Shown: piece by piece, positions 1 through 42,719 of the stretch
Numbering within the stretch: the first letter of the stretch is position 1
How the letters are laid out: the number at the start of each line of letters is the position of its first letter
From: Okamejei kenojei
Taxonomy: Eukaryota
NCBI GenBank assembly: GCA_035221665.1
Contig: CM069147.1
Coordinates: 1,550,001 to 1,614,000 of the forward strand
Length of the DNA stretch: 64,000 bases
Direction of reading: 5' to 3'
Translations under genes and position numbers: made by a program
Notes under the pieces: model-generated
What the model saw: the letters and a program-made list of their open reading frames with translations, nothing else
Told to the model about the DNA's origin: nothing
Databases searched by the model: none

Positions 1-156
1 ACAGTGCTGTTTACAAGATGTTCTGCGACGTGGCCACTTTATGTCATGTTCATTGACATTACAAATACTTTTAATCACTATTATAAAGACTGTTTATCTA
101 CACAATAAATATTCAGCCAAGGACCCAGGAAACTACAGGCATGGAGTAGACTGTAC

Positions 157-3799: not shown

Positions 3800-4410
3800 A
3801 ACAATGTCCCAGCTACTCTAGCCCACTTGCCTGCGTTTGGTCCATATCCCTCCAAACCGGTCCTATCCATGTATCTGTCTAACTGTTTCTTAAATGATGG
3901 GATTAGTCCCAGCCTCAACTGCCTCCTCTGGCAGCATTTTCCATACACCCACCACCCTCTGTGTGAATAAGTTACCCCTCAGATTCCTATTAAATCTTTT
4001 CCCCTTCACCTTGAACTTATGTCTTCTGGTCCTCGATTCCCCTACTCTGGCAAGATGCAAGGAGAATGCATCTACCCGATCTATTCCTCTCATAATTTTG
4101 TCTACCTTTATAAGATCCCCCCTCATCCTCCTGCGCTCCATGGAATAGAGACCCAGCCAACTCACCCACTCCCTATAGCTCTAGTCCTGGCAACATCCTC
4201 GTAAATCTTTTCTGAACCCTTTCCAGCTTGACAACATCTTTCCTATAACACGGCGCCCAGAACTGAACACAATATTCTAAATGCGGCCTCACCAACATCT
4301 TATACAACTGCAACATCACCTCCCAACCTCTATACTCAATGCTCTGACTGATGAAGGCCAAAGTGCCAAAAGCCTTTTTGACCGCCTTTATCTACCTGCG
4401 AGTCGACCTA
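3800..4410 (-). mobile_element. CR1 LINE ORF2 C-terminal fragment (decayed)
   Basis: ORFs 4173..4361 (LYKMLVRPHLEYCVQFWAP...LERVQKRFTRMLPGL) and 3890..4165 (LYSMERRRMRGDLI) are typical of the CR1 RT C-terminus. Confidence 0.93.
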
Positions 4411-4887
4411 TATGTTTTTATCCTTTGTGAAATAATTCAATTTTATGCTACATTACCAATTAAAGGAATAATTTCCTGTGGTACGTAACATTGTCATAGT
4501 CACAAGGCATCCCAACGTAAGGATCATGTTGGCAAGGAATCGAGCGAGTCAGTCTGTTGTTTAATGAGAGCCCACTGACAATGAGGGAGCATCAGATGAC
4601 ACTGGTTGTTCAGAACTATTGGACGTATGCAGGTCACGGAGGGCCGGTTATGCTGCAGGATTCTATTGGCCAAATTGCTGTAGAATTATGTCCTCTGCTC
4701 CAGATTCTGCCACCGTTTCTTTCACTTTCAAAAGAATAAGCACGACAGCCGCTATTTAAATTATCACCCAAAATATGATAATTCCAGAAGATGCAAACCT
4801 CCTCCGATGGACTCTCCGTCACTCTCATTGCTGCCGCCTTTGTCCCTCTGCATTTCACCTTTCGTCCTCAGTGTGCTTGGTGTTGGG

Positions 4888-5355
4888 TTCATAAGGTCAT
4901 AAGTGATAGGAGTCGAATTAGGCCATTCAGCCCATCAAGTCTACGCCACCATTCAATCATGGATGATCTATCTCTCCCTCCTAACCCCATTCTCCTGCCT
5001 TCTCCCTATAACCCCAGACACCTGCACTAATCTCAAATCTATCTGTCTCTGTCTTAAAAATATCCACTGACTTGACCTCCACAGCCTTCTGTGGCAAATA
5101 ATTCCACAGATTCACCGCCCTCTGACTAAATAAATCTCTCCTCATCTCCTTTCCAAAAGAACATCCTTTAAATCTGAGGCTATGACCGCTAGTTCTAGAC
5201 TCTCCCACTAGTAGAAACATCCTCTCCATATCCACATCCAGGCCTTTCACTATTCTGAACGTTTCAATGATGTTCCCCCACATTCTTCTAAACTCCAGCG
5301 AGTACAGGCCCAGAGCCGACAATCGCTCAACATAGGTTAATCTACTCATTCCTGC
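4888..5355 (-). mobile_element. CR1 LINE 3' end
   Basis: ORF 4981..5349 (LGLYSLEFRRM...FSQRAVNLWN) followed by the 3' UTR ending CTTATGACCTTATGA. Confidence 0.92.
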
Positions 5356-5454
5356 GTGGTTCTTGGTTGATAGCCCTGTGTTGTGTAGGCTGAGGTTATT
5401 ACATCACCTCTCATTCTCTGCCCTTCCCAATGTTTTGTTTCGCTGCAACCTCTT

Positions 5455-5560
5455 TGTGCTATAAAGTTAATGGTGACAATGACCATATTGTGGTCACTGC
5501 TTGGGAGGTATTCTCTGACTCTGAGCTGCCCTGCCACCTCCTGGTAGTTAGTTATTATCA
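5455..5560 (-). mobile_element. Ancient CR1 endonuclease-domain relic
   Basis: Translation VREYLPSSDHNMVIVTI contains the SDH motif that ends APE-type endonucleases. Confidence 0.45.
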
Positions 5561-5734
5561 TAACCATTGGTATTGTGGATCATGCCCCTTTCATGACCCA
5601 TGGCTTCAGATAACAATTCCATTTTGTACGCAGGATCATATCCCCATTCCAATTTCACCCCGAATAGATTCCCGATCTATCACAAATAAAGTACAGTGAC
5701 CAATGGCAATGAGATCCTTTACACCTCCATATAA

Positions 5735-6048
5735 TTTAGTTTAGTTTGTACAGCGAGGAAACAGGCCCTTCGGCCCACCGAGTCCGTGCCGACCAGCGCG
5801 ATCCCGCACACTAACACAACCCTACACACTAGGGTCAATTTACATTTACACCAAGTATACAAACCCAAGCCAATTAATCTACAAACCTGTAGTCGTCTTT
5901 CGAGTGTGGGAGGAAACCGAAGATCTCGGAGAAAACCCACGTGGTCACGGGGAGAAGGTAGAAACTCCGTACAGACAGCACCTGTAGTCGGGATCGAACC
6001 CGGGTCTCTGGCGCTGAAAGCGCTGTAAGGCAGCAACTACACCGCTGC
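5735..6048 (-). mobile_element. tRNA-derived SINE (HE1/V-SINE type), near full length
   Basis: On the minus strand: tRNA-like head with B box GGTTCGATCC, a central core, a CR1-like tail GGGCCGAAGGGCCTGTTTCC and a (CTAAA)n end. Confidence 0.9.
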
Positions 6049-6331
6049 CCTAGCATGCTGCCCCATTTCCTCCTTATCACAGGGCCCTCTGGTTGCTCCT
6101 TGTAGAATTCCACCCAAGACTCCAGCATCTGCAGTTCCTTCATGCAGATCCAGATGTAATAAAATGGAGGTATAATGGGACTGGATCTCTCTGGTAAGTG
6201 TGAGGTGATGGAGCCAAGGAATGGAATAATATTAAAGTGTTAGTGAGGGGTCTCATTTTAACAAGAAAGAACCAGAGGGCTCTCTGGCCTTTCCTGGAGG
6301 TGTGAAGGGAGAATCAGAAGTAAACGCAGAG

Positions 6332-6480
6332 GGTGGCTCAGCAGCGCCAGAGGCCCGGGTTTGTTCCCGACCTCGGGTGCTGCCTGTGTGTGGAGTTTGC
6401 ACGTTCTCCCTGGGACCACGTGGGTTTCTTCTGGGTGCTCCGGTTCCCCCTACATTCCAGGACATGCTAGACTGTAGGAC
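6332..6480 (+). mobile_element. Diverged SINE 5' half
   Basis: GGTGGCTCAG...CCCGGGTTTGTTCCCGAC...GGAGTTTGCACGTTCTCCC core. Confidence 0.75.
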
Positions 6481-7273
6481 GTGTACAGACATTCACACAG
6501 GAACCCCTACGCATATGTACGTTAGCGTAGTAAACCACAGGATATTTACTGGCACAAGTCCAATGATAAATGGTGCAGTATAGCAGGATTTATTTCATGA
6601 ATGAGAACCTCAATGTGTGTGAATTAAGAGGCTTTCATGCTTGAAAAATAAACCTAATAGTTTACTACTACCTATGCACACCTCTAGATTTATTCAACAG
6701 GCAGCTTGATAAATCCCATCAGATAAGAAGCTGATGTCCCAGCCAAATGTGATACAAAACTTATCACATGCGGTGACAGCATTGTGTTGGGAGTGACTTC
6801 ACCTTCTTCGATTACTGCTGTAAATCTGCATGCCTCCAGTGCCTCACAGCCACAGCACCAGATTTATCACCCGCTCCGTACAACTAAATTGGCAAAAGTG
6901 TTGTTTCTTTCCGCACGGCAGCCGCTAGTAAACTCTGCAAATTTGGGGTTCTATTTTCACTTGGTGTAACGACGCACTTTGATGTACCCAGCTCACGCTG
7001 TAGTTTCAGGTTTATCCTCATTCATGCACGCACGCACATCAGGCTCACGCTTACATCCAATCCACCCATAAGTTAAGATCATGCAAAGTATTAAAAGTAA
7101 ACACGACTTAAACTCGACCTCCAGCAATTAATTATTCCCCAAGAAAACTAGTTTTCGCAGAGTGGATTGAGGGAAGCCATGGATAGGCTGTGAGCAGAAA
7201 TGTTTGTATGCATTTAGTTGTAGGATGGATAGACTCCTGTTTATGTCAAGGCAAACGAGGGCTGTTTTAAACC

Positions 7274-7815
7274 GCAGATAGACACAAAATGCTGGAGTAA
7301 CTCAGCAGGTCAGGCAGCATCTCTGGAGAGAAGGAACGGGTGACGTTTCGGGTCGAGACCCTTCTTCAGACTGATGTCAGGGGAGTGGGAGACACAGAGA
7401 TAAGGAAGTGTAAGGTGTAAAAACAGGACTGTGGAGAATGGAGATCAAGGAAAATGTAGCTTCGATCAGTGTTAGTTTGGAGAAGGCAACAACAAAGCAA
7501 TCAGAGATAAAATGTAGTCTGAGACAGTCAGACTGGTGGGAGAACTGGGAAGGGGAGGGATGGAGAGAGAGGGAAAGCAAGGGTTACTTGAAGTTAGAGA
7601 AGTCAATGTTCATACCGCTGGGGTGTAAACTATCCAAGCAAAATATGAGGTACTGTTCCTCCAATTTGCACTGGGCCTCACTCTGGCAATGGAGGAGGCG
7701 TGGGACGGAGAGGTCAGATTGGGAATGGGAGGGGGAGTTAAAGTGCTGAGCCACCGGGAGATCAGGTAGGTTTAGGCGGGCTGAGCGGAGGTGTTCAGCG
7801 AAACAATCGCCGAGC
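7274..7815 (-). mobile_element. Penelope-like element 3' end (GIY-YIG endonuclease C-terminus plus terminal repeat)
   Basis: The end of ORF 7584..8087 (LGDCFAEHLRSARLNLPDLPVAQHFNSPSHS...KLEEQYLIFCLDSLHPSGMNIDF) is the characteristic PLE endonuclease C-terminus. It is followed by a ~310-nt non-coding terminus. Confidence 0.9.
7338..7372 (-). ncRNA. Minimal type I hammerhead ribozyme motif in the PLE terminal repeat
   Basis: The minus strand reads agu-CUGAAGA-A-GGGU(CUCG)ACCC-GAAA-C-GUC-accc: both core boxes intact, 4-bp stem II, palindromic ACGU in place of helix III, and a GUC cleavage triplet. Activity is not demonstrated. Confidence 0.75.
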
Positions 7816-8349
7816 ACGGGCTTTTTTAAAGTGGACCTTTGTCTGCCTTGACAACCTCCCACTGCTTTGATGCCGTTCCTGATTACACTTGCAGGGAATG
7901 CCAATAAATGGTTAATTAGTGGTACAGTACACAGGAGAGTCTCTGACTGGGGTTGTACACAGAGTGAGGGCAGAGAGGAACTTGCTTTTCTTCTCCAAAA
8001 TGCGAGTACATCTGTTACTAGCAGGTCGAAGTAGGAGCAGGTCACCAGAACTGAAAACAAATTGTACAGTCTCAATGATTTCCTCATGAGACAAGCATGG
8101 ACTGAGAGAACATGTGAATTTAATATATTATTCTTGATTAAAGGGTTTCATGTCTGAATAGAGGTGAAAATAAGTTCACTAGGTATAATAGGGATTTATG
8201 TAGTGGCTCCTGCACTTCTGATGTCACCCATTAAACTCAACATTTAAAAACATTGAATCATTCACTTCAAAAATATATCAAACGAAATTCAAAAATTAAT
8301 CTAGATTTTGAACGAAGAGATTGGAAAGGTTTTATTTAAAATGTATTGA

Positions 8350-8455
8350 TTTTGCCCAATGGGTCAGAGAGTGTGTGCAGTAAGTAGGTCCGTCATAAAG
8401 CACAGAAAGACCATGTGTAATTCCCAGTCCGTGCTGAGTTAGCTGATCTTAACTC
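8350..8455 (+). mobile_element. Ancient SINE relic (AmnSINE2-like head)
   Basis: CCCAGTCCGTGCTGAGTTAGCTGATCT (8423-8449) resembles the post-B-box segment of AmnSINE2 as I recall it; it needs a Dfam check. Confidence 0.4.
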
Positions 8456-8611
8456 ATCTTAGCCTTTAGTCTCCCAGTTCACTGACCTCCTGTCATGCCT
8501 TTAGCTTAACCTCCACATCAACTCTCGTGCCCCACATCCACAGTCACCCCTCTGACCTTCGCAACTTCAATTCCTACATCTCAATTACAGACAAGACAAT
8601 CTCTGACTTCT

Positions 8612-8747
8612 TGTGTGGAAAGGAACTGCAGATGCTGGTTTATACCGAAGGTAGACACAAAGTGCTTGAGTAGCTCAGCGGGTCAGGCAGCAGCGTCTCT
8701 GGAGAAAAGGAAAAGGTGACGTTTCGGCTTGGTACCCTTCTTCAGAA
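8612..8747 (-). mobile_element. Short non-coding PLE-terminus element with decayed hammerhead stem II
   Basis: GGAACTGCAGATGCTGG...AGACACAAAGTGCT...GGTGACGTTTCGG...CCCTTCTTCAG. Confidence 0.85.
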
Positions 8748-8784
8748 GGAGGATCTGTGTTTATTTTCCTGCTTCTCTGCTGGA

Positions 8785-8995
8785 TTCCCTATTTGTTCCC
8801 ATTCCCTATTTGTTCCCATTCCCTATCCATATCCCTATCCAAAGCCCTATCCCTTCACCTATCCCATTCCCATTCTCTATCCATATCCTTATCCCCATCT
8901 GTATACTTATATCTATCCCACTCCCACTCCCAATCCATATCCCTGTCCCCATCCGTATGCCTATACCTATCCCATTCCATATCCTTTCCCATTCC
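8785..8995. repeat. Degenerate hexamer simple repeat (CCCATT/CCCTAT)n
   Basis: Visible 6-bp periodicity, which produces spurious PYPYP and SLSLS ORFs. Confidence 0.85.
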
Positions 8996-9120
8996 AGGTA
9001 CTTTGTGCATCAGGCTTGGAATATATTCTGCAGCAACTCAGTGACACTGCACATTTGAACATCCAGTGGTTCAGTTTCTGGCCCCGCTCACACTTGAGTT
9101 AATGATCTCGTCAATTACAT

Positions 9121-9360
9121 TGTGTAGGAAGGAACGGCGGATGTCGGGTTCACACCAAAGGCAGGCAAAGAGTGCTGGAGTAACTCAGTGGGACCGGCAG
9201 CAACTGTGGAGAACATGGATAGGTGACGTTTCACAGAGTGCTGGAGTAACTCAGCGGGTCAGGCAGCATCTGTGGAGAATGTGGATAGGTGAAGGATGCC
9301 AACCCAAAAGGTGGATAGGTGGATAGAAGAAGGATGCCAACCCAAAATGTCACTAGTCCA
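9121..9360 (-). repeat. PLE-terminus element with two 66-bp units
   Basis: GAGTGCTGGAGTAACTCAG...GGATAGGTGA at ~9170 and ~9236. Confidence 0.8.
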
Positions 9361-9786
9361 GTTACATCACCTCTGCCTTGAATTGTCCTGGCCACCACAG
9401 CCTTCTGTGGCAAGGAATCTCACAAATTCACACTATCTGACTAAAGTAATTCCTCCTCATCTCCTTTCCAAAGGAACATCCTTTTATGCTAAGGCTATGG
9501 CCTCCAGTCCCACTATGGTAGTTTTACCTCTAAGTTACTCCAGCACTTTATATCTTTTTTGGTAAACCAGCCTTTGCAATTTCTTGTATCCACGTCTGAC
9601 CTCTAATTAACCTTCACTGGATAATTAAGAGTTAAATAAAATGGATCCTATTGAATCAATCATCTGTAATTACGAATTATGCTTTCTTGTAATTGCAAAT
9701 ACTTTTTACCTTAAGTAACCTTTAATTTGACCATTTTGTTTGTTAATCATTCGGTGTAATTATAACCAGCACCATACTTTGGAATA

Positions 9787-10200
9787 GGCATCACGGTGGC
9801 GCAGGGGTCGAGCTGCTGCCTCACAGCGCCACAGACACGGGTTCCTTCCCGACTACGGGCTGTCAGTACGGAGTTTGCACGTTCTCCCCGTGACCTGCGT
9901 GGGTTTTCTCCGGGTGCTTCAATTTCTTCCCACACTCCAAAGACGTGCGGGTTTGTAGGTTAATTGGCTTCGGTAAAAATTGTAATGGGGATCGCTAGTT
10001 GGAGCGGGCTTGGTGGGCCAAAGGTACGTCTAGTGTGTGTGTGGTCGCTGGTTGGCATGGGCTGGAGGGCCTGTTTCCGCGCTGTTTCTCTAACGCCTAA
10101 AGTCTAGTGTGTGGATGATCGCTGGTCGGCACAGACTCGGTGGGCTGAAGGGCCTGTTTCCACGCTCTATCGCTAAACTAAACTGTATTAAACCAAACTA
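9787..10200 (+). mobile_element. tRNA-derived SINE with tandemly repeated 3' tail
   Basis: Head ACGGTGGCGCAG and core, then three versions of the GATCGCTGGTCGG...GGGCC tail segment ending (CTAAA)n. Confidence 0.88.
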
Positions 10201-10729
10201 GGATAATCCCCGGATCAAGGGCTTGCACAGGTTGGATGCCAAAGTGTTGCACCCACCTTATACCTGGTGTTCCCTGATCCCATTTACTCTGCCGATAATT
10301 TTTATCCCGTGTTGGTTTAACTATATATGTTAGAGTTTAATTTTGCAGCTCGTACAGGAGACAGTGATGTATGGGTTACATCAAGCTTTGCTGAAATGAT
10401 ACGATCCCCAGGGAGCTGGGAGCTGGGTAGTGTCTCGCTGAGCAGAAGGGTGGGGAGAGGAGGTGGTAGTTTGCTCTCTGAACCTGGCCATCCTGCCCAA
10501 CACCTGCTTCACCAACACTTATTGATTTTGTTTTTATAGTTTTAAATCTTGTTCAAATGATCTCAGACAGTGACCTTCACCAGGTGAAACTCAACTATTT
10601 CACGAGAAGAAAAGGGATGATAAAAAAGACAAAGGACGCAAAATTGAACATTAATAAAATCCAAACATGTAGCATCAGGTGCCATGTTTACAGCCCAGTA
10701 GCCTCTTCTGCACCAGCAGAATAAAGAGC

Positions 10730-11150
10730 ACTTGCTGCCCAGCGCCTCACCCCCCCCTCCCCACACTCACCCTCCCGTCCTGGGCCTCCTCCACTGTCAG
10801 AGTGCTGCCCAGCGCCTCACCCCGCTCCCATCCCCACACTCACCTTCCTGTCACTGCTTCCATTTGCTGCTCAACACCTCACCCCCCTCCATTCCCACAC
10901 TGACCTTCCCGTCCTGGGCCTCCTCCACTGTCCGAGTGAGGCTCAGCGCAAATTGGAGGAACAGCACCTCATATTTCACTTGGGCAGCTCACACCCCAGC
11001 GGTATGAACATTGACTTTTCTAACTTCAGATAGCCCTTGCTTTTTCTCTGTCTCCTTCCCCCCCTCGCAGTCTCCCACCAGTCTGAGTGTCTCCGACTAC
11101 ACTGTATCTGTTTGCTTTGTTGTTGCCCCCTCTCCCAACTAGCGCTGATC
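10730..11150 (+). mobile_element. Penelope-like element 3' fragment (left part, internally duplicated)
   Basis: Encodes VLGLLHC.SEAQRKLEEQHLIFHLGSSHPSGMNIDFSNFR*; the segment GTCCTGGGCCTCCTCCACTGTC is present twice. Confidence 0.88.
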
Positions 11151-11760
11151 TCATGATCATGATCATACTTTATTAGCCAAGTATCATTTTGCAACGTACG
11201 AGGAATTTTATGTGTCATACAGTCACACCAATAAAAAGCAAAATAACACACAAAACACATTTTAACATGAACATCCACCACAGTGACTCCTCCACATTCC
11301 TCACTGTGATGAAAGGCGAATAAAAGTTCAATCTCTTCCCTCCTTTGTCCTCCAGCGGTCGTGGGCCTCTAACCTCCCGTAGCCGGCGCTGGCCCTCCGC
11401 GTCAGGGTAATCAAGCTCCCCGCACTGGGCGATCTTTGGAGCTTCTCGACTCTGGTCTCTACCCGAGACTGCGAGCTCTCGATGTTAAAGTCCGCAGGCC
11501 ACGCACGGTTGGAGCGTCGATCCCAGGCTCCGATGGTAATCCACGCCACAAGGTGGGGCTCAAGGTCAGTCTTGAGCAACGCCTCCAGCTCCGGCAAGGT
11601 GAGAGATTGAAAAACAGTTTCCCCCGACCCCCTCACCCACCCCCAACATAAAACAAACCAGAGAACATTAACACATACTTTATAAACACATTAAAAATAA
11701 CAAAAAAAATGCAAAAGACAGATCATTGGCGAGGCTGCCATCGAAACGCCACCTGGTGGA
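11151..11760 (-). mobile_element. ~610-bp non-autonomous retroelement inserted into the PLE
   Basis: It interrupts the PLE terminus (the flanks rejoin as in the 7274-7815 copy). The minus strand ends in AATAAAGT plus a short (ATGATC) repeat tail shared with ~16620-16690. Confidence 0.65.
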
Positions 11761-11975
11761 TTTATTCTACATTTTCCTTGATCTCCATTCCCTTTGTCTT
11801 GTCTTCATACCTTACACTTCCTTATCTATGCACCTCCCTCTCCCCTGACATCAGTCAGCAGTGCCTCAACCCGAAATGTCACCCATCTCTCCAGAGATGC
11901 TGCCTGTCCCGCTGAGTTACTCCAGCTTTTTGCCTACCTTCATCTGCATCAGCATCTGCAGTTCCTTCCTGCACA
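11761..11975 (+). mobile_element. Penelope-like element terminal repeat (right part), hammerhead core decayed
   Basis: CTACATTTTCCTTGATCTCCATT...CCCCTGACATCAGTC...ACCCGAAATGTCACCC...GCTGAGTTACTCCAGC matches the reverse complement of 7274-7460. Confidence 0.88.
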
Positions 11976-12094
11976 TGAAGAGTGTTTGTGGTCTTTTTAT
12001 TTCTACATTAAGCAGTTGATGTCATGAGTGGTTACACTACGCCCTCTAGTAACCCTTGAGGCTGTACGAGTAATGGTCAACTCTGACCCAATCA

Positions 12095-12875: not shown

Positions 12876-13215
12876 TAGAAATAGAGAAACATAGAAAATA
12901 GGTGCAGGAGTAGGCCATTCGACCCTTCGGGCTAGCACCGCCATCCAATATGATCATGGTTGATCATCCAAAGTCAGTACCCCGCTCCTGCTTTCTCCCC
13001 ATATCCCTTGACTCCGTTAGCCCTAAGAGCTAAATCTAACTCTCTCTTGAAAACATCCAGTGAATTGGCCTCCACTGCCTTCTGTAGCAGATAATTCCGC
13101 AGATTCACAACTCTCTGGGTGAAAAGGTTTTTCCTCATCTCAGTTCTAAATGGCTTGCCCCTTCTTCTTAAACTGTGACCCCTGGCTCTGGACTCCCCCA
13201 ACATCGGGAACATTT
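12876..13215 (-). mobile_element. CR1 LINE 3' end
   Basis: ORF 12974..13213 MFPMLGESRARGHSL...FTQRVVNL...FKRELD plus 3' UTR. Confidence 0.92.
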
Positions 13216-14118
13216 TTCATGGAAAGATTATGTTTTGGGTGGGAACCCTTCTTCGCACATCAAGATGGGTTTGGCAACTAGATAACATTGGTGTTAGTAT
13301 CAAATCTCCTGCATCAGCCCTGGTCAGAGCAACTGACCATACACAGAGTACAGTGGTCTGCCAAAACACTGCTGAGAACATGACGTTCTCACAACAAGCG
13401 CAACGGTTAACCCTTGCTCACCGTACCACATCATTCACTCAGGCTGGGCAAACTATTATATAGACACAAAATGTTGGAGTAACTCACATAAACTATTATA
13501 TATATATATACACAGCGTGAGAAATTGTAACTTTCTGCATTCATTTCCAATACATGTACAGATCTCTGCTGCCGACTCAATTATTCATTACTTTTGCAGT
13601 TTGTATTATGTGCCCTGAAATGTAGTTAAAATATACTGTCCAGTTACAAGCACATCAGTGATATTCTATTTTTCTCCTGTAAATAAGATAGTGTTTTCTT
13701 TCAAGCTTAACAGCCAAATCAGCAAGTGAATGATTTCATTGGCTTTTGCTATTTGGAGGCTTTACAGGACAAATGTCGTTGTGTTGTTACAACAGTGCGT
13801 TACTGCAAATGTGAGTTCCACCTGGCCTGGTATTGGACCATTGAAGGAACTGATATTGTACCAAAGCCTGACCCTGGGAGTGTAACAAATGAAGCAATTA
13901 TGTGCGAGCGTTAAATGGCACTGGAGACCTGCCTGCTTTTCAGGTGCACGGAACCATTATAAGTTCCTTTGACAGGTTGTGTAATTTAAAGAGGAAATAC
14001 ACCGAACAAATTCCTTTGACATGGCAGGTACCCCGCAGAACACATCACGGGCAGGATTACAATTTCCCTCAGCAAGAAACACATGGAGGTGTTTGTGGAC
14101 AAACCTGCCCGAAACAGG

Positions 14119-17198: not shown

Positions 17199-17753
17199 CA
17201 GCAGCCACCGCCGTCTGGAGATACACTCAGCATGATCCCAGCAGCCACCGCCGTCTGGAGATACACAACATGATCCCAGCAGCCACCGCCGTCTGGAGAT
17301 ACACAACATGATCCCAGCAGCCACCGCCGTCTGGAGATACACAACATGATCCCAGCAGCCACCGCCGTCTGGAGATACACAACATGATCCCAGCAGCCAC
17401 CGCCGTCTGGAGATACCCTCAGCATGATCCCAGCAGCCACCGCCGTCTGGAGATACACCCAGCATGATCCCAGCAGCCACCGCCGTCTGGAGATACACCC
17501 AGCATGATCCCAGCAGCCACCGCCGTCTGGACATACACTCAGCATGATCCCAGCAGCCACCGCCGTCTGGAGATACACAACATGATCCCAACAGCCACCG
17601 CCGTCTGGACATACACTCAGCATGATCCCAGCAGCCACCGCCGTCTGGACATACACTCAGCATGATCCCAGCAGCCACCGCCGTCTGGAGATACACTCAG
17701 CATGATCCCAGCAGCCACCGCCGTCTGGACATACACTCAGCATGATCCCAGCA
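17199..17753. repeat. 38/40-bp minisatellite, about 14 units
   Basis: Unit CAGCAGCCACCGCCGTCTGGAGATACAC(TCAG|AA)CATGATCC, highly homogeneous. Confidence 0.95.
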
Positions 17754-18934: not shown

Positions 18935-19380
18935 TGTAGGAAGGAACTACAGATGCAGATTTACACTGAAGATAGACACAAAGTGCTGGAATAACTCAGT
19001 GGGACAGGCAACATCTCTGAAGAAAAGGAACAGGTGATGTTTTGGGTCGAGACCCTTCTTCAGAGTCAGGGGATAGGGAAACTTGAGATATGAAAAGGTT
19101 CAGAATGAACCACAGCCGGCACTGGTGATCAAAGAAAGGTGGAGCCCATAATGGTCCATTGTAGGCTGTGGAAGAGGTGATATGTAGTTATCAAAGTTAA
19201 CAAAGAAGACACAGAGTGCTGGAGTAACTCAGCGGGTCAGGCAGCATCTGTGGGGAACATGGATAGGTGACGTTTCACAGAGTGCTGGAGTAACTTAACA
19301 GATCAGGCAGCATCTGTGGAGAACATGGATAGGTGACGTTTCACAGAGTGCTGGAGTAACTCAGCGGGTCAGGCAGCATT
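18935..19380 (-). mobile_element. Cluster of PLE-terminus elements including a 66-bp array (19210-19378)
   Basis: A copy with a hammerhead-like end at 19033-19063 (mutated), then three GAGTGCTGGAGTAACT units. Confidence 0.85.
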
Positions 19381-20084
19381 TAAAAGACATCTGGGTGAAA
19401 GCTTTTCACTGTACCTCAGTACACGTGACAATAAACTAAACTGACATAGCCATGACCAGAAAGGTTTAGAGGGATGTGGGCCAAACACAGGCAGGTGGGA
19501 CTAGTATAGATGGGGCATCTTGGTCATCATGAACAAGTTGGGATGAAGGGTCTGTTTCCATGCTGTATGACTATAACCCTTAAAACAGAAGTAAACGGTG
19601 GTGAAGATAGTAACAGACTTCAAGAGTAAAAACAGAATGATGGAATAATTGAGTAGGAAGGAACTGCACATACTGGTTTAAGCCGAAGATAGAAACCTAG
19701 TCTGAGGAAGGGTCTCAATCTGAAACGTCACCCATTCCTTCTCTCCAGTGATGCTGCCTGTCCCGCTGAGTTACCCCATCATTCCGTGTCCACCTTTCTT
19801 CAGGACAGGAAAGGTTTAGACTGAGGGACCAAATTGGGTCGGTGGGTCGAGTATAATTGGACATTTTGGTCAGTATGGATGAGTTGGGCAGAAGGGCCTG
19901 CTTCTGAGCAGTACATGTCTATGACTAGAAGTGAACTCAGCACCCACTTAGCCTCCTGCCGTAAACAGGCATAGCTTAGATGTTCAGCAGTGGGCAAGGT
20001 GAGCAGTGGATAGGTATGTGGGAGCTCTGACAGAAACATGGCTGAGAGATGGACAGGGCCAGCGATTCAATGTTATTGGTTCCA

Positions 20085-21671: not shown

Positions 21672-21990
21672 CAGGAAGGAACTGCAGATGCTGGTTTACA
21701 GTGAAGATAGACACAAAATGCTGGAGTAACTCAGCGGGGCCGGCAGCATCCCAGGAGAGAAGGAATGGGTGACGTTTCGGGTCGAGATGTCTGAAGATGG
21801 GTCTTGACCCGCAGCGTCAACACTTTACTGGCATGAAGGTGGATTGGCACGTTATAAAACGGCTGCTTCTCCAGGTCATTCAAACATCTACACTGGCGGC
21901 TGCTGTAAACATGGAGACACTGGACCCGAAACATCACCCATTCCTTCCTTCTCCCCAGGGATGCTGCCTGTCCCGCTGAGTTACTGCAGC
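21672..21990. mobile_element. Back-to-back inverted pair of PLE-terminus elements
   Basis: 21672-21787 is in one orientation; CTGAAGATGGGTCTTGACCC at 21791 and GACCCGAAACATCACCC...GCTGAGTTACT at 21923-21985 are in the other. Confidence 0.8.
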
Positions 21991-33199: not shown

Positions 33200-33850
33200 A
33201 CAGGGTGCAGGAGAGTGGGGTGCAGGATAGTGCGGGGTGCTGAGGGAGGGTGCGGGGTGTTGCAGGGTGCGGGGTGTTGCAGGGTGCAGGGTGTTGAGGG
33301 AGGGTGCGGGGTGCTGTAAGGTGTTGCAGGGTGCAGGGTGCTGAGGGAGGGTGCGGGGTGCTGTAAGGTGCAGGGTTGCAGGGTGCAGGGTGCTGAGGGA
33401 GGGTGCGGGGTGTTGCAGGGTGCGGGGTGTTGCAGGGTGCAGGGTGTTGAGGGAGGGTGCGGGGTGCTGCAGGGTGCGGGGTGTTGCAGGGTGCAGGGTG
33501 CTGAGGGAGGGTGCGGGGTGTTGCAGGGTGCGGGGTGTTGCAGGGTGCAGGGTGCTGAGGGAGGGTGCGGGGTGTTTGCAGGGTGCAGGGTGCTGAGGGA
33601 GGGTGCGGGGTGTTGCAGGTGCGGGGTGCTGCAGGGTGCGGGGTGCTGCTGAGGGAGGGTGCGGGGTGCTGAGGGAGGGTGCGGGGTGCTGAGGGAGGGT
33701 GCGGGGTGTTGCAGGGTGCGGGGTGTTGCAGGGTGCAGGGTGCTGAGGGAGGGTGCTGTAAGGTGTTGCAGGGTGCGGGTGCTGAGGGAGGGTGCGGGGT
33801 GCTGAGGGGGTGCGGGGTGTTGCAGGGTGCTGTAAGGTGTTGCAGGGTGC
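33200..33850 (+). repeat. G-rich compound minisatellite
   Basis: Modules GGGTGCGGGGTGTTGCA / GGGTGCA / GGGTGCTGAGGGA. Confidence 0.95.
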
Positions 33851-33899
33851 ACGTTGCTGCAGGGATCCTCCCCGTTAACAATGGGTCCTGGAACTGGAA

Positions 33900-37689: not shown

Positions 37690-38533
37690 CTCCGAGTGAA
37701 GCTCAGACACAGGAGTGAAGCACAGGCATGGTTAGGTCTCGGAGTGAAGCACAGACACAGGGCTGGGCTCGGAGTGAAGCACAGACACAGGGCTGGGCTC
37801 AGAGTGAAGCCACAGACCACAGGGCTGGGTCTCGGGAGTAGAGCACAGACACAGGGCTGGGCTCAGAGTGAAGCACAGACACAGGGCTGGGCTCGGAGTG
37901 AAGCACAGACACAGGGCTGGGCTCGGAGTGAAGCACAGACAGGGCTGGGCTCGGAGTGAAGCACAGACACAGGGCTGGGCTCGGAGTGAAGCACAGACAG
38001 GGCTGGGCTCAGAGTGAAGCACAGACAGGGCTGGGCTCGGAGTGAAGCACAGACACAGGGCTGGGCTCAGAGTGAAGCACAGACAGGGCTGGGCTCGGAG
38101 TGGAGTGAACACAGACAGGGCTGGGCTCACAGAGTGAAGCACAGACACAGGGCTGGGCTCAGAGTGAAGCACAGACAGGGCTGGGCTCAGGAGTAAAGCC
38201 AACACAGGGCACAGACAGGGCTGGGCTCAGAGTGAAGCACAGACAGGGCTGGGCTGGAAGAAGTGAAGTGAAGCACAGACACAGGGCTGGGCTCAGAGTA
38301 AAGCACAGACAGGGCTGGGCTCGGAGTGAAGCACAGACAGGGCTGGGCTCGGAGTGAAGCACAGACAGGGCTGGGCTCAGAGTGAAGCACAGACACAGGG
38401 CTGGGCTCAGAGTGAAGCACAGACAGGGCTGGGCTCGGAGTGAAGCACAGACAGGGCTGGGCTCAGAGTGAAGCACAGACAGGGCTGGGCTCGGAGTGAA
38501 GCACAGACAGGGCTGGGCTCAGAGTGAAGCACA
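37690..38533. repeat. 28/30-bp minisatellite, roughly 28 units
   Basis: Unit AGGGCTGGGCTCRGAGTGAAGCACAGAC(AC). Confidence 0.95.
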
Positions 38534-38919: not shown

Positions 38920-39100
38920 GTGTGGGAAGGAACTGCAGGTGCTGTTAGATAGGCACAGAGTGCTGGAGTAACTCAGCGGGTCAGGCAGCATCTGTGGAGA
39001 ACATGGATAGGTGACGTTTCACAGAGTGCTGGAGTAACTCAGCGGGTCAGGCAGCATCTGTGGAGAACATGGATAGGTGACGTTTCGGTTCGAGACCCTC
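38920..39100 (-). repeat. PLE-terminus element with two 66-bp units
   Basis: CAGAGTGCTGGAGTAACTCAG... twice, ending GACGTTTCGGTTCGAGACCCT. Confidence 0.88.
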
Positions 39101-40284: not shown

Positions 40285-40468
40285 AAGGAACTGCAGATGC
40301 TGTATAATAAACAAAAGGACACAGTGCTGGAGTAACTCAGCGGGTCAGGCAGCATCTGTGGTGAACATGGATAGGTGAGGTTTCACAGAGTGCTGGAGTA
40401 ACTCAGCGGGTCAGGCAGCATCTGTGAAACATGGATAGGTGACGTTACGGGTCGGGACTCTTTCAGAC
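40285..40468 (-). repeat. PLE-terminus element with two 66-bp-type units
   Basis: Same family as 38920-39100. Confidence 0.85.
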
Positions 40469-42566: not shown

Positions 42567-42719
42567 CGACGCTTCGGGTCGAGACCCTTCTTCAGGCTGG
42601 AGAACAGTCTCGACCTGAAACGTCACCCGTTCCTTCTCTCCAGAGATGCTGCCTGTCCCACTGAGTTACTCCAGCTTTTTGTGTCTGTCTTCGGTTTAAA
42701 CCAGCATCTGCAGATCCTT

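Follow-up and report, generated by a model that had tools for sequence, protein, structure and literature searches.

A minimal type I hammerhead motif, putatively a ribozyme, in the pseudo-LTR of an abundant Penelope-like element that likely transposes from uncut RNA

The minimal hammerhead ribozymes of metazoan Penelope-like elements (PLEs) are the closest described systems to the locus considered here. According to the part of Cervera and De la Pena (2014; PMC4209133) on which we draw, they carry an extra base after A9, a G10.1-C11.1 pair, a palindromic helix III and, in D. virilis, a helix I of 2 bp, and they show no activity as monomers and low activity as dimers. The PLE ribozyme of Anolis, in the portion used of PMC11167929, cuts only with the protein of the element, and uncut RNA is the main template. 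A CX2-5CxxC linker was defined for Neptune and Nematis in the relevant section of PMC8557442, where the function of PLE hammerheads is still called unclear. Non-LTR retrozymes, which also contain PLE-related type I hammerheads, are present in the one chondrichthyan sampled (bioRxiv 10.64898/2026.07.22.740005, in the part referred to), and the Penelope element of D. virilis has an internal promoter made of Inr and DPE (PMC2377424, in the part referred to).

Here, we analysed a 64-kb stretch of Okamejei kenojei DNA, referred to as the window in its whole length. Judged from its letters, the minus-strand segment 7372-7338 is an intact minimal type I hammerhead motif of a PLE and a putative ribozyme. 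We hold with moderate confidence that it represents a fossil minimal hammerhead in the pseudo-LTR of an abundant PLE, selected in the master elements and weak or protein-dependent in its activity, and that the element transposes from uncut RNA with a 5' end 2-4 nt before the CUGA box. All offsets given below are counted from C3 of this box (window position 7369 = 0), which places the putative cut between +27 and +28. The features of the locus, in the direction of the element, are as follows:

7818-7830, minus strand: AT-rich target-site duplication of 13 bp, 5' copy, agreeing with the 3' one at 12 of 13 letters
7272-7817, minus strand: 5'-truncated PLE insertion, comprising the end of GIY-YIG, the 3' UTR, the pseudo-LTR that carries the hammerhead, and a short tail; counted from C3, homology to the family extends from about -453 to +92..+109, and the target duplication bounds the insertion
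7584-7817, minus strand: GIY-YIG endonuclease frame, C-terminal part; stop TAA at 7584-7586
7370-7372, minus strand: AGU, 5' strand of putative helix I; start point of short family copies (presumed RNA 5' end, initiator-like)
7362-7369, minus strand: CUGAAGA core box and the extra A after A9
7350-7361, minus strand: helix II GGGU/ACCC with loop CUCG
7342-7349, minus strand: GAAA box, ACGU palindrome in the place of helix III, and GUC triplet; putative cut after 7342
7338-7341, minus strand: ACCC, 3' strand of putative helix I; predicted decoy partner of the helix II 5' strand
7272-7337, minus strand: tail of the pseudo-LTR / 5' UTR, reaching to the nearer of two zones where reverse transcription starts (+89..+94)
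7259-7271, minus strand: target-site duplication, 3' copy, with a microhomology overlap into the tail of the element

Read from 7372 to 7338, the motif consists of AGU, CUGAAGA, A, GGGU, CUCG, ACCC, GAAA, C and GUC / ACCC, with C3 at 7369, G12 at 7349, C17 at 7342 and the putative scissile bond at 7342/7341. Both core boxes (CUGANGA and GAAA) are intact and the NUH cleavage triplet is present. Helix II comprises 4 bp, including the G10.1-C11.1 pair, and is preceded by one unpaired base after A9; helix I has 2 bp (U-A and G-C) followed by an A.C mismatch, and the palindrome ACGU replaces helix III. The original prediction, made from the sequence only, had placed an intact minimal hammerhead with a helix I of about 2 bp at a PLE terminus, about 210 nt past a GIY-YIG stop codon. 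The letters bear this out: the distance from the stop TAA to C3 is 214 nt, and the motif lies in the pseudo-LTR of an element encoding RT and GIY-YIG. The prediction had also described the extra base after A9 as tolerated in natural hammerheads and the palindromic helix III as a known PLE feature, and the part of PMC4209133 cited here agrees, also providing the D. virilis precedent for the short helix I.

As compared with the metazoan minimal hammerheads (PMC4209133, in the part cited), the motif retains both boxes, the extra base between 9 and 10.1, the G10.1-C11.1 pair and the palindrome at 15.2-16.2, as well as the pseudo-LTR location, the prevalence of single truncated copies and the low expected activity. 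In contrast, helices II and I are 7-8 and 4-5 bp long in Schistosoma and 4 and 2 bp here, and D. virilis, which also has a 2-bp helix I, carries a small helix III insertion. The part of that work used here mentions neither sharks nor rays. The motif adds one more lineage to a described class, at a copy number of about 1e6 fragments.

With a strict descriptor, which required the two boxes, the palindrome, NUH and a helix II of 4 bp or more, we found 51 matches in a 1.43-Mb blind genome sample, all from this PLE family, versus 0-1 in each of ten dinucleotide shuffles (3 in all), and hence the motif is not due to chance. In the window, which holds 38 anchored family copies, there are two strict matches, namely the 7372-7338 copy on the minus strand and one at 19702 on the plus strand. 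An Rfam scan of positions 4000-12000 gave no match to any hammerhead family at E<=10, which is unsurprising given that the motif lacks helix III. A pattern scan of metagenomes returned two matches (contigs L261 and L262), similar minimal hammerheads with other loops, GUU triplets and helices I of 3 bp and 1 bp, respectively; the scan pattern fixed the stem, so these two give no covariation evidence.

The host insertion is 546 bp long (7272-7817) and is a 5'-truncated fossil without coding capacity. A Pfam search of its own GIY-YIG fragment (7584-7817) gave no match, and longer family copies gave weak RVT_1 and GIY-YIG matches under the curated cut-offs. The RT part retrieved 209 homologues, most of them with RVT_1, the best named ones being from rays and sharks. 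The linker, C-x4-C-x2-C, fits the CX2-5CxxC motif, and by its sequence the element is an EN+ PLE of Neptune/Nematis type, the linker being common to the two. Besides the linker, it has in common with the Neptune and Nematis units, in the part of PMC8557442 used, a C-terminal GIY-YIG, partial tandems, an inverted 5'-truncated copy, a 30-40 bp tail and a ribozyme in the pseudo-LTR; in our family, inverted 5'-truncated copies and a short PLE tail are both present. PAc (Poseidon of Anolis carolinensis, Frangieh et al., 2024, PMC11167929, in the portion used), on the other hand, belongs to the Penelope/Poseidon clade and its ORF starts in stem II, whereas here the linker is of Neptune/Nematis type, the ATG lies at +162 and reverse transcription starts in the 5' UTR.

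The family is highly abundant. Its reading frame gave 117,904 first-look candidates in the 2.76-Gb genome, and the blind sample contains 507 end fragments in 1.4 Mb, which extrapolates to about 1.0 million (~1e6) family fragments genome-wide; the 7372-7338 copy is one decaying member among about a million, which the original prediction had missed, as it had the sharp start of the copies at the 5' edge of the ribozyme. We distinguished a young subfamily, whose long copies are 94-98% identical and of which one 33-mer has 41,095 exact matches. Its layout is hammerhead, ATG at +162, a single ORF (RT and C-terminal GIY-YIG) and the next hammerhead, with the hammerheads 3,919-3,993 bp apart in five of eight long loci; partial tandems are frequent. 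A case of self-insertion was also observed, in which a short young copy with target duplication lies inside the pseudo-LTR of another copy (L211:210 / L279).

Several other repeats were noted in the window. Head-to-tail 66-bp arrays of the unit +20..+85, with the GAAACGUC half only, occur at 401-616, 9169-9292, 19210-19379, 38954-39086, 40319-40468, 47404-47649 and 58703-58966. Their units (66-bp rows) are 89-100% identical and adjoin degraded or missing CUGA halves, and their junctions number 13 in the 64-kb window versus 4 in the 1.43-Mb blind sample; the arrays appear to be a local, recent amplification or conversion. We considered the 66-bp duplication as a cis dimer partner and rejected it, given the degraded or missing CUGA halves next to the window arrays and the rarity of such junctions elsewhere. 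Identity with a retrozyme was rejected as well: the copy is single and joined to GIY-YIG sequence, and the arrays carry the GAAACGUC half without the CUGA half. Retrozymes are non-coding tandem repeats, each unit of which has its own complete ribozyme, whereas here we deal with dispersed element ends with target duplications (bioRxiv 10.64898/2026.07.22.740005, in the part referred to). Unrelated minisatellites are found at 17199-17753 (40 bp), 33230-33865 (17/37/54 bp) and 37712-38533 (28/86 bp). The minus-strand segments 3890-4180, 4981-5403 and 12974-13216 resemble, by their translations, the 3' ends of CR1/L2-type LINEs, and we take them to be ordinary repeat debris.

For the analysis of conservation, 223 copies were collected by a pattern over the core (up to 4 mismatches) and clustered on the tail alone, which gave six tail-defined clusters. 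Between the clusters, changes affect 2 of 21 core, palindrome and helix II sites as compared with 16 of 56 tail sites (p=0.07); both changed sites are instances of CpG decay in the oldest cluster, and without CpG sites the figures become 0/19 versus 16/56 (p=0.005). The collection pattern, which spans the core, shifts these comparisons towards conservation. Apart from CpG decay, the palindrome is kept in all six clusters. Tolerant sites of the ribozyme changed more freely (4 of 10), the changed letters being loop 2, C17 to U (H17) and A to G at 1.1. The core conservation anticipated across subfamilies is thus seen at non-CpG sites. As to covariation of stem II, one-sided changes that keep a wobble pair occur (U-A to U.G in 13 of 34 copies of one cluster), and no two-sided change was present in the 13 copies compared, the subfamilies being too close. 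Conservation is not limited to the ribozyme, as the tail also has blocks as conserved as its core, and it could instead serve a promoter or protein binding.

After insertion, decay is even (7.5% in the core, 9% in helix II, 8.1% in the tail and 20% at CpG), which implies that selection acted on the master elements and that the window copy is intact by youth or luck. In its cluster, 8 of 79 copies are fully intact, the 7372-7338 copy included. We conclude that the motif is likely under selection in active masters.

The positions at which the copies begin were scored in the 470 of 507 blind-sample copies that aligned well. Of these, 184 have their first letter within -5..0 and 3 within +27..+29, with +28 itself empty, against a local background of 2.4 per position; insertions from cut RNA thus have an upper 95% bound of 1.9%. 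The peak stays at -5..-1 after dropping 105 copies whose reference itself began at -3. The 235 copies with a 5' box comprise 115 solo, 60 inverted, 54 long and 6 tandem ones. The solo copies keep T(-1) in 83, G(-2) in 82, A(-3) in 74 and C(-4) in 53 cases, with background letters from -6; the start positions range over -5..+3, and roughly one solo copy in four begins at or after C3. Three head-to-head inverted pairs joined at the ribozyme were also noted in the window (21690-21819, 42568-42705 and 48877-49074), which, if transcribed, would give long hairpin RNA.

The young subfamily, represented by 107 copies (those of the blind sample together with 59 loci chosen by a sequence that lies downstream of the cut site), displays a similar edge, with 33 of 81 short copies starting at -4..-2. 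Target duplications of 10-16 bp flank 30 of 54 non-inverted short young copies, a few of them called far from the junction. Three young copies were scored at +28: two have a whole sister-subfamily ribozyme upstream and the third, L254 (G000:C2:103437299-103440360), is an inverted pair joined at +28/+29. This is the only junction found at the putative cut site, and it could be due either to a cut template or to palindrome fold-back. Contigs from DNA runs of three other, related organisms have the edge at the same place: the depth falls about tenfold (two runs) or about eightfold (third) between 7365-69 and 7375-79, and the best-supported head-to-tail joints run from 7371-7372 back to 7276.

The 3' ends fall in two zones, +89..94 and +125..130, which constitute the PLE tail. 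No excess was detected at +27, where 2 of 191 ends fall, both with family tail further on. PAc likewise has two internal RT start zones about 35-40 nt apart that form the tail, and it also has in common with our family AT-rich targets and, as we infer here, uncut RNA as template; for PAc, neither genomic nor RNA traces of the cut site are reported, while here DNA ends alone lack a cut-site peak (PMC11167929, in the portion used). A 5' end at the ribozyme edge is not described for PAc in that portion. Near these zones we observed a conserved long-range helix of AGAUGCUG (+47) with CAGCAUCU (about +110), which encloses a small hairpin and is seen at L085:8923-9056, L138:4806-4937, L210 and other loci. 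It brackets both RT start zones and is predicted to be a candidate protein-binding structure; the window copy has no 3' arm. Inside this helix there is a conserved upstream ATG (L210:433-600; window 7322-7324, minus strand), about 115 nt before the main ATG, and in the young subfamily a short upstream reading frame begins with it.

The simplest reading of a fixed 5' edge that lies past a hairpin is the physical end of the template RNA. Judged by the DNA ends, uncut RNA with its 5' end at the ribozyme edge is the likely template of transposition, and this end is probably the transcription start. A different model, proposed in the part of PMC4209133 used here, is that both hammerheads of a tandem transcript cut and release a unit RNA that forms a circle, from which rolling-circle copies are made, the short copies being a by-product of uncut linear RNA. 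It would account for partial tandems exceeding one unit and for private variants common to both pseudo-LTRs of one insertion (L272, L273 and L274), and a re-ligated junction would be scarless in DNA. Yet, among the 470 blind copies there is no excess of 5' ends at +28, just as the 2 of 191 3' ends at +27 reveal none, and jumping of the RT accounts for tandems too. Moreover, a circle without an end at -3 cannot yield the dominant copy class, and we regard this model as unlikely. Signs of jumping were found directly: in L277, a C3-to-2.5-kb segment followed by a second C3-to-tail segment lies inside one 13-bp duplication, and both segments end at C3, which implies a jump after reaching the 5' end. 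In L258 and L078, copying resumes from +31/+32, past the cut site, and such joints recur in one other organism. The lack of cut templates in DNA is compatible with cleavage, since cut RNA may decay before insertion or re-ligate into circles.

We also considered that the sharp 5' edge is a processing point, produced by a nick from the element's endonuclease, by folding back at the short palindrome near -1, or by splicing (AG/U at -1 as the 3' site). An inverted duplicate is present at the edge in 60 of 235 copies, CAG-T-CTG forms a palindrome, the pyrimidine-rich sequence upstream has CAG as its last letters, and in D. virilis an intron ends at helix I (PMC4209133, in the part cited). However, A(-3) and G(-2) are retained in the majority of solo copies, and the solo, non-inverted copies have the same start edge as the inverted ones. 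A spliced first exon upstream of AG/U was rejected, as no shared upstream sequence was found and the letters are at background from -6. Altogether, a processing point seems quite improbable to us. Cap-templated G as evidence for the start site did not hold up either. In a small young set, G precedes the junction in 13 of 18 cases versus 6 of 18 (hand count); in genome-wide lists, it was found in 33 of 100 first matches at -4 versus 59 of 100 at an internal control junction, which thus gave more G. In these lists, 26 of 46 A's at -4 belong to one recurrent duplication and 45 control cases to one recurrent prefix.

Returning to the start at the ribozyme edge, A(-3) lies in the context YYA+1NWYY, which is the initiator consensus. 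With A(-3) taken as +1, the letters GTCA/GTCG/GTTG at +29..+32 match four of the five letters of the DPE (RGWYV at +28..+32; PMC5580651, in the part used). This and the Inr and DPE precedent of D. virilis (PMC2377424, in the part referred to) are consistent with a hammerhead that is catalytically dead in this lineage, with letters kept as DNA for an internal initiator and DPE-like promoter or for a protein-binding site. Such a possibility also agrees with the 2-bp helix I of the youngest master and with the low predicted probability of helix II (at most 0.20). On the other side, loop 2 varies, yet the 13 letters of core and palindrome are all retained, as are the three G-C pairs, which is more what one expects of a hammerhead than of a promoter motif of five letters; a four-of-five DPE match arises by chance with a probability of about 5%, and in humans the DPE is said to be rare (PMC5580651, in the part used). 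We therefore consider a dead hammerhead improbable.

How far the putative ribozyme folds was approached by structure prediction. Helix I has 2 bp in 29 of the 51 strict matches and 4 bp in four, owed to flanking DNA; in the young master it consists of U.G plus G-C, still 2 bp. No distal extension of helix I was predicted in folds with 40-60 nt of upstream sequence, and an extension by upstream sequence was thus rejected. Immediately after the cut site there is an alternative partner for the 5' strand of helix II (ACCC, ACCU or GCCU), and the consensus fold is predicted to prefer this decoy. In 18 folds of six natural copies, the probability of helix II is <=0.20; the predicted decoy pairing dominates short constructs in five of the six, and other folds win in longer constructs. 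A dimer with both helices II and the ACGU helix is calculated at -12.7 kcal/mol versus -21.1 for the best dimer fold, and adding helix I costs 3.3 kcal/mol, tertiary contacts being ignored in both cases. The monomer is thus predicted to misfold. Self-cleavage of the family after GUC, which the original prediction had proposed, gains support neither from these folds nor from the one-sided covariation nor from the insertion record, in which cut RNA left no trace as a template. Taken together with the published minimal and Anolis hammerheads, these predictions make weak or assisted cleavage the best guess, and the putative cleavage is probably weak or protein-dependent.

The preferred reading, copying from uncut RNA, may be pictured as follows. 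Transcription would start at or beside A(-3), leaving 3 nt for helix I, which would explain its length of 2 bp. The RT of the element would then start internally at +89 or +125 and copy to the 5' end, giving a product of 92-135 nt. This short product would be inserted alone, or fold back to yield an inverted pair, or jump on into the 3' UTR and the ORF; a jump to the homologous 3' repeat would leave no seam, so that we can only infer it. Decoy pairing would mostly hold the ribozyme off, with cutting after GUC only as a dimer or with the element protein, and cutting would be a side branch that switches off or circularises the RNA.

In retroviruses, minus-strand strong-stop synthesis is primed by a tRNA near the RNA 5' end, a short product is made to that end and then jumps. 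Here, by comparison, nicked target DNA would prime, the short product would itself be inserted, and the transfer to the 3' repeat is conjectural. As a tentative extension, the hammerhead may form the first 31 nt of an mRNA that overlies an internal promoter: strong-stop cDNA from +89/+125 to the cap would give the roughly one million SINE-like stubs, the rest would jump to the 3' repeat and rebuild the pseudo-LTRs, and selective cutting by the downstream ribozyme would set a 31-nt R region. If this is true, a 31-nt terminal redundancy (R region) would be a function of PLE hammerheads that leaves no scar in DNA.

In the open-access literature listings searched, we found no earlier account of a PLE that starts at the edge of its ribozyme, of a strong-stop model or of this shark/ray family. 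What is added here are the insertion-end statistics, which bound the use of cut RNA to under 2% of insertions. The young subfamily with its clean junctions gives a precise candidate RNA 5' end and a testable copying model, which bear on the function of PLE hammerheads and on the origin of pseudo-LTRs and tandems.
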